A stretch of DNA of 58,256 bases, the filler included, from Platydemus manokwari (lineage: Eukaryota), in the NCBI GenBank assembly GCA_037951405.1. It is 4 parts of 4 records of this genome, joined end to end, with 100 filler letters (N's around TTAATTAATTAA, not from the genome) between each part and the next. Parts side by side here need not be neighbours in the genome. Positions count along the whole stretch, not along the records: positions 25,260 to 37,555 come from JBBMOY010206672.1; 3 more parts are not named here. One strand, written 5' to 3'. The translations under genes were made by a program, and so were the position numbers. Shown in pieces: positions 26,428 to 27,870 of this stretch. Position 1 is the stretch's first letter; every line of letters starts with the position of its first letter. A model generated the notes under the pieces. It had not been told where the DNA came from and did no database searches. It saw only the letters and a list, made by a program, of their open reading frames with translations.

Positions 26428-27510
26428 TCAAGGATGAAGTTGGTTATGAGCTTTGTGGAGCTTTAAAGAACATTGTTGAAATTGGCGCTGGATTCTCTGA
26501 AGGTCTTGGTTATTGATTATTTTGAAGTAAATATCCTGTATCCTACTGGATACCGATTTACGGGCATTCTTCGGTTCTCCTGCTCTTGCTTCCTCGGCCA
26601 TTTTTTCATTCATAATGGGAGCTCCATCCAAGTCTCTTACTCCCAGCACTCCTTCTAGCCTTACACTTATAGCATTCAATTTTTCATTTAGTTTGTGACC
26701 CACAATTATTTTTTCTTGCCACAACTCCCTTAATCTAACCTTCGCCCAAAAATCATCTACCTGCCCTCGGACATTTGTTTCCATTAGCCCCCTCTGTTCA
26801 ATATTATATTCAGCTTGTGGGCAAATACATGTCTCGAACAAGGTTTTTCCTTTAAAATCCATCACTCCTACCCACGTTGGATGATGTTCTCCAAAGAAAT
26901 CCACGGCGGTCTTTACGTCAACAAAGATTATTCTTTCTCGTTCCTCTTGTATGTTTAGGCTTCTTCGGACAAAACTTAAACTTTTATTCAATGCTTGAAA
27001 CGGCAAGGGCCTTTCCGCCTCAATGGGGATCACCGGATATTCTTCTATTTCTGCCCCCTCTTCCACCATTCTTTGCTCTATGGCAAAAATGGCTGGCAGG
27101 TCAGAGACGCTGATTATTGCGCTCTGACGATTTTTAAGAGTGGTAGTCTTCCACTTTTTTTGGGTCAACTTTAAACGGATCTTTAATGAGAAGAGAGACT
27201 CTACCTCGTATTTCACAATATCCATTTTAACGGTTATCCTTGGGGTTGCCGCATGGATCACTATCCGATGCGTTTCGATTTGATTGTTTAACAACATGTC
27301 TCCCAATCGAAATCTTCCCTGGGTTAGTGTATGTACTATAATCAATATTTGGCTACTCTTTGTTGGGGCCTTCAATTTATTTGGAATTTCTTCGACTCGT
27401 GTATATTGCCTTATGCCTACAGTGCTTGCTGTACCTTTAACTGTGGATTGCTGCAGTTCTCTGTAGAACCTGCTGGGGTAGGTTGACTTCTTGGTTTGTT
27501 TGATATCCAT
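26428..27510 (-). CDS. 360-aa protein with a C-terminal REX4/ISG20-like DEDDh 3'-5' exonuclease fold and a degenerate active site
   Basis: IIFVDVKT..WVGVMDFKGKTLFETCICP..LRELWQEKIIVGHKLNEKLNAI..VRDL parallels REX4 VALDCEM..RVSIVN..G..VYD.YV.P..LL.GRILVGH.L.NDL..L..RDT. A GTAAG..CAG intron (27585-27513) lies just upstream of the ATG. Confidence 0.75.
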   Translation of the reverse strand: MDIKQTKKSTYPSRFYRELQQSTVKGTASTVGIRQYTRVEEIPNKLKAPTKSSQILIIVHTLTQGRFRLGDMLLNNQIETHRIVIHAATPRITVKMDIVKYEVESLFSLKIRLKLTQKKWKTTTLKNRQSAIISVSDLPAIFAIEQRMVEEGAEIEEYPVIPIEAERPLPFQALNKSLSFVRRSLNIQEERERIIFVDVKTAVDFFGEHHPTWVGVMDFKGKTLFETCICPQAEYNIEQRGLMETNVRGQVDDFWAKVRLRELWQEKIIVGHKLNEKLNAISVRLEGVLGVRDLDGAPIMNEKMAEEARAGEPKNARKSVSSRIQDIYFKIINNQDLQRIQRQFQQCSLKLHKAHNQLHP

Positions 27511-27870
27511 TTCTGAATTACAAAATATTAATATTGAATTTATGGGTAATAATTCGATGACAATGATGTGTGAGATGATGCTTACTTTGAGTCTTTTTGG
27601 GCTTTGATCCTGTGAGCGATTCCAGTCCTCGCTGATTCTCGTAATCGCTACTGGGTCATCATCATTGCACTTGATTTATTATTTTGCTTTTGATTTTATT
27701 CCCCATTTTCATTTATTTTTTATTTTACTTTAACCCCTTACTATTACTGTTTTTGGTGCATTCTTTATTTTTTCTTTTTATGTCATTATTCATGATAGAT
27801 TTTGATATACATAACATTGATATTGCGTATAAATATCAAATATAACTATTTACACGGCTTATTGATGCAT

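Follow-up and report, generated by a model that had tools for sequence, protein, structure and literature searches.

Several mobile elements carry accessory genes that resemble parts of the locus described here. In the bdelloid LTR retrotransposons Juno and Vesta, a DEDDy-type ORF3 is located downstream of pol as a separate gene; according to the text available from that study, bdelloid ORF3s are typically separate units produced from spliced messages, and roles in silencing and at 3′ ends have been proposed for them, their function being unproven (PMC5408684). DEDD folds are also found on other carriers: KolobokD DNA transposons encode a DEDDh exonuclease (PMC9587614), the ExoN proteins of arenaviruses and nidoviruses are of the DEDD type, with a part in immune suppression in arenaviruses (PMC7968707), and Maelstrom and EXD1 are inactive DEDD derivatives that act in piRNA biogenesis (as cited in PMC5408684). 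A different kind of accessory gene, ORF2 of orchid Gypsy elements, belongs to the AlkB family and is a recognizable ALKBH5 homolog (PMC9289625).

As described in the parts of a review available to us, the Burro/GYPSM1 elements of dugesiid planarians are giant Gypsy-like elements in which a mononegavirus-type env lies between gag and protease within one huge polyprotein, and the in-frame env in this position was first seen in these elements; tandem repeats, accessory ORFs, and decayed copies with stops and frameshifts are reported as well (PMC6431247). Burro-type elements have LTRs, an internal region of up to 25 kb, and extra domains of the MATH, BIR, BCL2, ankyrin, ubiquitin-like, and dUTPase types. 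Troyka LTR elements, in the portion of their description that we consulted, have no envelope gene and carry a C-x2-C-x8-10-H-x4-C knuckle (PMC12440569).

Here, we consider an open reading frame (ORF) in a 58,256-nt stretch of DNA from Platydemus manokwari (GenBank assembly GCA_037951405.1), referred to below as the window; positions 25,260 to 37,555, where the ORF lies, come from JBBMOY010206672.1. Our main reading, to which we assign a probability of about 0.6, is that the ORF represents an accessory gene of a Burro-like element, in a damaged copy, composed of a predicted beta-helix domain and a catalytically dead ISG20-type domain, and that the gene likely served the active element as an RNA end–binding counter-defense factor made from a predicted spliced message.

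The open frame and its retroelement surroundings

The ORF and the element remnants around it comprise the following features:

26428..27510, minus strand: open frame of 360 codons, of which codons 1 to 333 are homologous to the accessory-gene family (family profile)
27586..27870, minus strand: AT-rich spacer that runs from the polyprotein stop to the candidate splice donor, with several AATAAA (read from the sequence)
27871..37111, minus strand: ruined giant polyprotein with ~53 stops and frameshifts and large internal deletions (match to L003)
30250..31248, minus strand: remnants of the protease region, RT, and RNase H, internally deleted (matches to the L003 polyprotein in tblastn)
31087..32092, minus strand: decayed pieces of an env gene for a Monjiviricetes-type fusion glycoprotein, located upstream of the protease and RT remnants (PF24664, E = 4.6e-14 and 0.0016; match to L003)
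36965..37006, minus strand: Gag-type C-x2-C-x4-H-x4-C zinc knuckle (by eye; no Pfam call)
26046..26228, no strand assigned: tandem repeat with a 66-nt unit (2.8 copies), located downstream of the ORF (repeat scan)

The ATG of the ORF is at 27510 and its stop codon ends at 26428, which gives 360 codons from the ATG and 415 from stop to stop. This is the longest stop-free stretch of the A-rich segment between 26.3 and 37.2 kb, the next best being 244 and 216 codons, and 2000 base shuffles of the stretch produced at most 191 codons. The first-pass annotation of this DNA, which had reported a 360-codon frame as the longest of the element, was therefore correct on this point. It had also called the frame uninterrupted and the neighboring modules full of stops. 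The frame is indeed open, but the gene is damaged, with a 3-residue gap at about codon 233 and a deletion junction at codon 333; the surrounding stops are present, but what they interrupt is most likely fragments of one giant polyprotein rather than separate genes. The N-terminal beta-helix domain and the Burro-like context had been overlooked.

The polyprotein ruin was read by comparison with a more complete locus. A scan with a seven-sequence alignment yielded four loci (L001 to L004) from 260 pattern matches. In L003, which begins inside the polyprotein, a relative of the ORF with intact catalytic motifs directly follows a whole env-protease-RT-RNase H-integrase polyprotein of at least 2978 aa. 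Such linkage to a whole polyprotein was seen in one of the four loci; L004 has just the 3′ end of an upstream ORF, and the short contigs of L001 and L002 have none, pol lying beyond the reach of all three. When the L003 polyprotein was used as a query, the protease-RT-RNase H region of the window was matched at E = 7e-5, 4e-19, and 4e-14, and the matches along the ruin followed the same order as in L003, with jumps of ~310, 390, and 300 residues; no integrase match was obtained with this query in the ruin. The 3′ end of the ruin is a hydrophobic stretch (by eye), and its final coding piece stops at 27871, which leaves 360 nt to the ATG of the ORF. The intervening spacer contains no ATG that would be in the frame of the ORF once the candidate intron was removed. 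Short repeats also follow the exonuclease gene in L001 and L002, and the 66-nt tandem repeat is possibly part of the 3′ end of the element.

Since env lies in frame between gag and protease in L003, as it does in Burro, we refer to the element as Burro-like; in the window the order is kept, while the frame is too decayed to read. The assignment to Burro-like giant Gypsy retroelements is thus made from layout alone. Compared to Burro, the window shows no LTR pair, the remnant being ~11 kb, cut at its 5′ end, and internally deleted. Neither MATH, BIR, BCL2, and ankyrin nor ubiquitin-like and dUTPase domains were called by Pfam on fragments of the remnant or on frames read with X at stops, and the three X-read frames gave no Pfam match of any kind; one stretch looks ubiquitin-like by eye, with a nonsignificant BLAST match to L003. 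A Troyka element was ruled out by the presence of env and by the standard zinc knuckle.

The strand of the ORF and its position relative to the polyprotein match those in L003, in line with the earlier claim that the accessory gene is linked to the retroelement. This agreement largely refutes the alternative of an unrelated host gene, or a separate mobile unit, adjoining the retroelement by chance. The lower A content of the ORF (0.36 versus 0.37 to 0.46 in the polyprotein) and the lack of any retroelement gene on the short contigs L001 and L002 would suit such an origin. However, many diverged copies were recovered in run X1, where 83 contigs covered 26400-27900, 18 of them at least 99% identical to the window and 58 less than 95% identical, and no named cellular gene was present among the 10 clusters examined. 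We consider a chance neighbor very improbable and the family identity of the ORF, together with its retroelement linkage, highly probable.

Other features of these loci and of the window were recorded. The L003 polyprotein (2-8938) extends ~450 residues past integrase, with hydrophobic stretches (by eye). In L003, the exonuclease gene is flanked by a 222-aa ORF (9105-9773, no Pfam match) and an 87-aa ORF (11319-11582), each preceded by YAG. Two small ORFs lie downstream of the exonuclease gene in L004 (2715-2972 and 3187-3360); they have alike acidic C termini (by eye) and are also preceded by YAG. Elsewhere in the window, decayed Monjiviricetes-type glycoprotein pieces similar to the L003 env are present at 50388-51058 and 5246-5543 (both minus strand) and represent other insertions of related elements. 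Two small dispersed repeat families, each with copies 71 to 85% identical, were found at 8963-9074, 25338-25449, and 49627-49727 and at 4914-5265 and 44018-44428, respectively. A 105-codon stretch at 14344-14661 (minus strand), with no Pfam match, resembles by eye a nuclear-receptor ligand-binding domain. The three 100-letter joints of the stretch, at 11383-11482, 25160-25259, and 37556-37655, share one form, with two runs of 44 N around a 12-nt palindromic spacer, and are an assembly mark. One contig of run X1 joins 25362 to 37156 and represents an empty site or a repeat artifact; since only 24 letters support one of its sides, which is too weak, the joint was not called an empty site.

A predicted beta-helix domain fused to an ISG20-type domain

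The following features were assigned within the ORF:

27058..27510, minus strand: predicted N-terminal double-stranded beta-helix domain, residues 1 to 151, AlkB-like or cupin (model, conservation)
26515..26934, minus strand: ISG20/REX4-type DEDDh exonuclease domain, residues 193 to 332, catalytic set absent (profile and model)
26911..26919, minus strand: ExoI position, reads D198-V-K200 (alignment)
26680..26700, minus strand: ExoII position, G271-HKLNE-K277, without the acidic residue (alignment)

An exhaustive phmmer search revealed 51 relatives of the ORF at E ≤ 0.001, with identities of 22 to 39%. The family alignment was built from 47 of them and codons 1 to 332 of the ORF; four short fragments were left out. 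The architecture of the family is an N-terminal AlkB/cupin-type beta-helix domain followed by an ISG20/REX4-type DEDDh domain and a long tail. Past the RDL motif, most long relatives run for ~150 to 370 residues more, compared to 41 in codons 1 to 332 of the ORF. A structure model built on the family alignment had a pLDDT of 86.8, whereas the single-sequence fold of the ORF reached only 37 and was unusable.

A REX4/ISG20-type fold had been proposed from the sequence, and both profile and model bear this out. The family profile matched ISG20L2 (E = 7e-31), ISG20 (4e-18), and SDN1 (7e-15), and residues 193 to 332 of the model aligned with the ISG20 structure at a Z score of 14.8 (rmsd of 2.5 over 137 residues). 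Atlas features of the ORF pointed to PF00929 (score 0.94, 183 of 256 shared). PF00929 itself was matched at E ≤ 0.01 by 15 of the 30 relatives scanned, 12 of which were above the PF00929 cutoff. The single ORF sequence, in contrast to the profile, found no match in Pfam, among PDB sequences (best E of 1.5), in the word-indexed protein database, or among phage records, viral contigs, and metagenome contigs; searching the word-indexed database with the profile added one further protein. The RNase D-like DEDDy type does not describe this family, as intact relatives carry the ExoIII His and match PF00929.

For residues 1 to 151, the model gave a Z score of 10.4 to both ALKBH7 and Ofd2 (rmsd of 3.1 over 136 to 137 residues) and of 10.6 to the cupin 1yhf, that is, a tie between cupin and AlkB-like chains. 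Family-conserved positions of this domain are Y16, IPN.LK at 42 to 47, H86, and E145, and its conserved polar columns are Y16, N44, K47, R54, H86, S/T122, and E145. AlkB and other 2OG-Fe(II) oxygenases are characterized by HxD...H iron ligands and a 2OG-binding Arg. No HxD..H metal triad is found among the conserved columns of residues 1 to 151 in the family alignment, and for this reason we refer to the domain as a degenerate beta-helix. The Atlas returned nothing usable for the N-terminal domain of relative P0037. In relative P0008, which is of the dead type, the protein is fused to a biotin-carboxylase fragment (PF00289), probably through a chimeric gene model.

The catalytic motifs were scored in the 41 of 47 aligned relatives that were long enough; a spurious regex match in P0008 was set aside on visual inspection. 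All three motifs are kept in 27 of the 41, none in 13, and two in one. The ExoI D-x-E is present in 28 of 41 scorable relatives; the ORF has D-V-K, and D-x-K is also found in P0001, P0003, P0008, and P0011. At ExoII, K277 of the ORF stands opposite D or E in 28 of 41. The ExoIII H-x4-D is not present in the ORF, nor in P0001, P0008, and P0011. The initial reading of these sites (DVK at ExoI, EK at ExoII, and no evident H..ED at ExoIII) is thus confirmed by the alignment, and the loss of catalytic residues that it implied proves to be common to the nearest relatives of the ORF. By its motifs, the ORF would be placed with pseudo-ISG20 proteins and not among active DEDDh enzymes.

In a quick maximum-likelihood tree, the ORF groups with the D-x-K relatives P0001, P0003, and P0008 (SH-aLRT of 94, the tool’s own mark being 95); other dead forms are located elsewhere in the tree, and there is no single well-supported clade of dead forms. 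Given this grouping, the dead ExoI and ExoII appear to have been passed down within a lineage of active elements, and we think it very likely that the dead state was inherited and is not due to decay of this copy. The case of ExoIII is different. The profile sets the deletion break just before ExoIII, whereas MAFFT sets the last helix before the break, so that deletion and earlier loss would both fit its absence from the ORF.

Splicing and the condition of this copy

The features that bear on expression and damage of the ORF are the following:

27513..27585, minus strand: candidate 73-nt 5′-UTR intron, GTAAG..CAG (acceptor recurs in relatives; donor putative)
26808..26818, minus strand: in-frame lesion near codon 233, 3 residues short of all 47 aligned relatives (alignment)
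26512..26513, minus strand: deletion junction at codon 333, with at least 85 nt missing compared to one other copy (contigs, profile)
26428..26512, minus strand: 27 codons after the junction, without family homology (relatives’ profile)

The intron candidate (27585-27513) is present as claimed earlier and ends 2 nt before the ATG of the ORF. The acceptor recurs: YAG is located exactly 2 nt before the ATG of the gene in the window, L003, and L004, while L001 and L002 have no acceptor at the start codon. Across downstream cistrons, YAG occurs 0 to 2 nt before 6 of 9 starts (all downstream starts of at least 55 aa, two internal starts having been dropped) while among background ATGs, taken from within the L003 polyprotein, it does so for 18 of 220 (P = 2e-5). 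Because of this enrichment at downstream cistron starts, we consider the splice acceptor well supported. In L001 and L002, a CCAAT box lies 80 nt (at 340) and 71 nt (at 158), respectively, before the exonuclease ATG, suggesting a possible internal promoter in this subfamily.

The donor is a separate matter. GTAAG occurs nine times in 10.9 kb of the minus strand, and since it is this rare, the chance of finding one 73 nt upstream is ~3 to 5%. The tail of the candidate is rich in T (0.55 versus 0.05 to 0.32 in 10 other GTAAG..YAG candidates) on an otherwise A-rich strand, and a 52-nt host intron of similar makeup is present in the window, in a divergent importin-alpha gene (45498-47052, minus strand; 37 to 41% identical to all 15 matches). 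At similar distances in L003 and L004, A-preceded GT sites are found 65 nt and 62 or 74 nt upstream, respectively, but these local donors match GTAAG poorly. Therefore, an arrangement must also be weighed in which the acceptor is real and there is no 73-nt intron, the donor being supplied by a distant 5′ leader, as in retroviruses, or by a trans-spliced leader acting on a polycistronic transcript. Acceptors precede several different cistrons in L003 and L004, as such a nested or polycistronic scheme needs, and spliced-leader trans-splicing, which has been described in Schmidtea, serves to resolve operons in flatworms (PMC12582326). The rarity of GTAAG, the host intron, and the A-preceded GT sites speak against it, and we place this arrangement well short of even odds.

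Comparison with other genomic copies relied on contig tables in which 40 of the 316 differences were listed, along with 12 of the 30 indels and 6 of the 37 loose ends. At 26808-26818, other copies have extra letters among the indels listed; the near-invariant Arg at 232 reads Gln in the ORF, beside the 3-residue gap. At 26513/26512, among the loose ends listed, at least one contig from another copy departs from the window, carrying 85 unaligned letters, and at least three contigs depart on the opposite side, where the unaligned letters have a median of 52. A contig of run X1 spanning 26323-26913 crosses the junction with 0 differences, which indicates that the junction is genomic and not an assembly error. 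A profile built from relatives only matched residues 5 to 335 (3e-61) and then stopped; the 27 codons past the junction are probably read by chance. Under either alignment, the nuclease domain of this copy is cut short at its end and the tail is missing.

The openness of the frame raises the possibility that the host has kept this copy, by domestication or partial co-option, as a shortened beta-helix and pseudo-exonuclease protein, for example, one with a dominant-negative effect on active elements of the family, while the polyprotein decayed. By a frame-path count, 52 to 53 breaks have accumulated in the 9.2-kb polyprotein (5.7 per kb) and none in 997 nt of the ORF, that is, no stops or frameshifts in 333 codons versus 5.7 expected. 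In a permutation analysis, P was 0.004 for a preset block and 0.036 for one of ten blocks, while for a 997-nt gap anywhere among 53 random breaks, it was 0.22; with stops alone, P was ~0.1. Since the gene was noticed for being open, the values of 0.036 and 0.22 are the fairer ones. Among the 40 of 316 differences listed, 16 of 35 in codons 1 to 333 were synonymous compared to 28% under neutrality (P = 0.016), and the control modules gave 4 of 20 (Fisher P = 0.08 versus the ORF); a crude dN/dS against other copies, from the differences listed, was 0.45. Part of the synonymous signal may date from the active phase, as few copies cover the ORF. In addition, within the ORF at least one other copy has gained 1 nt by insertion and lost 2 nt by deletion, and here the start codon, the acceptor, and a consensus-like donor are all present. 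However, the deletion at codon 333 shortens the nuclease fold at its end and removes the tail, and the near-invariant Arg 232 reads Gln beside three missing residues. Selection on this copy is possible but unproven, and we regard co-option as unlikely.

We favor a damaged accessory-gene copy instead. The lesions of the ORF are either in frame or terminal, so that the frame would have stayed open mostly by chance. The suggestion that the ORF is younger than the rest of the element did not hold: other copies are 81 to 90% identical to it, the stop density of the polyprotein points to ~6% private decay, and the observed identity thus fits two copies of the polyprotein’s age, each ~6% decayed. This locus is probably a relic.

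Possible role and comparison with known systems

A tentative scheme can be outlined for the family. In active elements, the acceptor 2 nt before the ATG would allow the gene to be expressed as a separate cistron. By analogy with ISG20-type enzymes, members with intact motifs would trim RNA 3′ ends, and this trimming could remove or finish element RNAs that would otherwise feed host RNA silencing or sensing. Dead members, including the lineage of this ORF, may have retained the fold to bind such ends or to act as decoys, shielding them from host nucleases. This locus would be a relic of such a gene.

The main competing role is in replication, where the protein would trim or proofread 3′ ends of the long RNA genome or cDNA in the manner of nidovirus ExoN, with the beta-helix as a relic RNA-repair module and the dead forms either decaying or complemented in trans. 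The catalytic set is retained in two-thirds of scorable relatives, the carrier elements are giant, as the L003 polyprotein illustrates, nidovirus genome growth has been tied to ExoN in the part of the source available (PMC7968707), and viral matches of the model include plant-virus replicase polyproteins and 2OG-Fe(II) oxygenases. On the other hand, the 13 relatives without any of the three motifs are long and open, keep their fold residues, and are not confined to a single part of the tree; the gene stands outside pol as a cistron of its own, and its beta-helix domain shows no metal triad. We consider a replicative role rather unlikely. Counter-defense is preferred because the many long open relatives that lack catalytic motifs would be intolerable for proofreading and because, in the partial texts consulted, DEDD folds serve arenavirus immune suppression (PMC7968707) and RNA binding by Maelstrom/EXD1 (as cited in PMC5408684). 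A counter-defense role is proposed tentatively, at slightly less than even odds. A bolder extension, in which the AlkB-like and ISG20-like module is conserved as a set of active nucleases and repeatedly evolved dead decoys directed against host silencing, with the present truncated copy co-opted as an inhibitor, appears improbable to us.

A family with natural active and dead forms offers a direct comparison for questions of both counter-defense and giant genomes, including the open question of what lets the largest retrotransposons run RNA genomes of 25 to 30 kb. Suppressors of host RNA defense are not well known from animal retrotransposons. The family also adds a domain fusion that Pfam missed in half of the scanned members. 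Taken by itself, this locus is of less consequence, being a damaged copy with only a modest chance of co-option.

Among known proteins, residues 193 to 332 are most like the ISG20/ISG20L2/REX4 DEDDh exonucleases (PF00929; PDB 1wlj and 7yw5; SDN1, 5z9x), in profile and predicted fold. Compared to these enzymes, the family adds the N-terminal beta-helix and the long tail and is borne by retroelements, and in the ORF itself, which is truncated at codon 333, neither the ExoI E nor the ExoII acid nor ExoIII is present. The orchid ORF2 provides a Gypsy accessory protein with the same 2-oxoglutarate-oxygenase–type beta-helix fold, as far as its available description goes (PMC9289625); the likeness of our ORF to it is in fold only (4 to 11% identity), with the cupin tie, no metal triad, and the exonuclease fusion as differences. 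KolobokD, ExoN, and Maelstrom/EXD1, which we compare by description from partial texts, show DEDD folds reused for end processing, proofreading, immune suppression, or dead RNA binding, but on other carriers (a DNA transposon, RNA viruses, and host genes) and in other DEDD subfamilies.

The literature searched, whose scope did not extend to the 2018 Schmidtea genome paper and Repbase, contained neither a beta-helix and ISG20-type fusion nor an exonuclease in Burro-type elements; in the review text on Burro, both mentions of “exonuclease” concern rotifer Terminons, and none is named for Burro (PMC6431247). From what is available of their description, Juno and Vesta differ from the present family in that their ORF3 is an RNase D-like DEDDy protein with intact residues, whereas this family is ISG20-like DEDDh with many dead members, has an extra domain, and resides in elements with env in frame before protease. 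Thus, DEDD accessory genes in retrotransposons are already known, while the beta-helix and ISG20-type fusion is new with respect to the literature searched, and this novelty rests on the family more than on the present copy.
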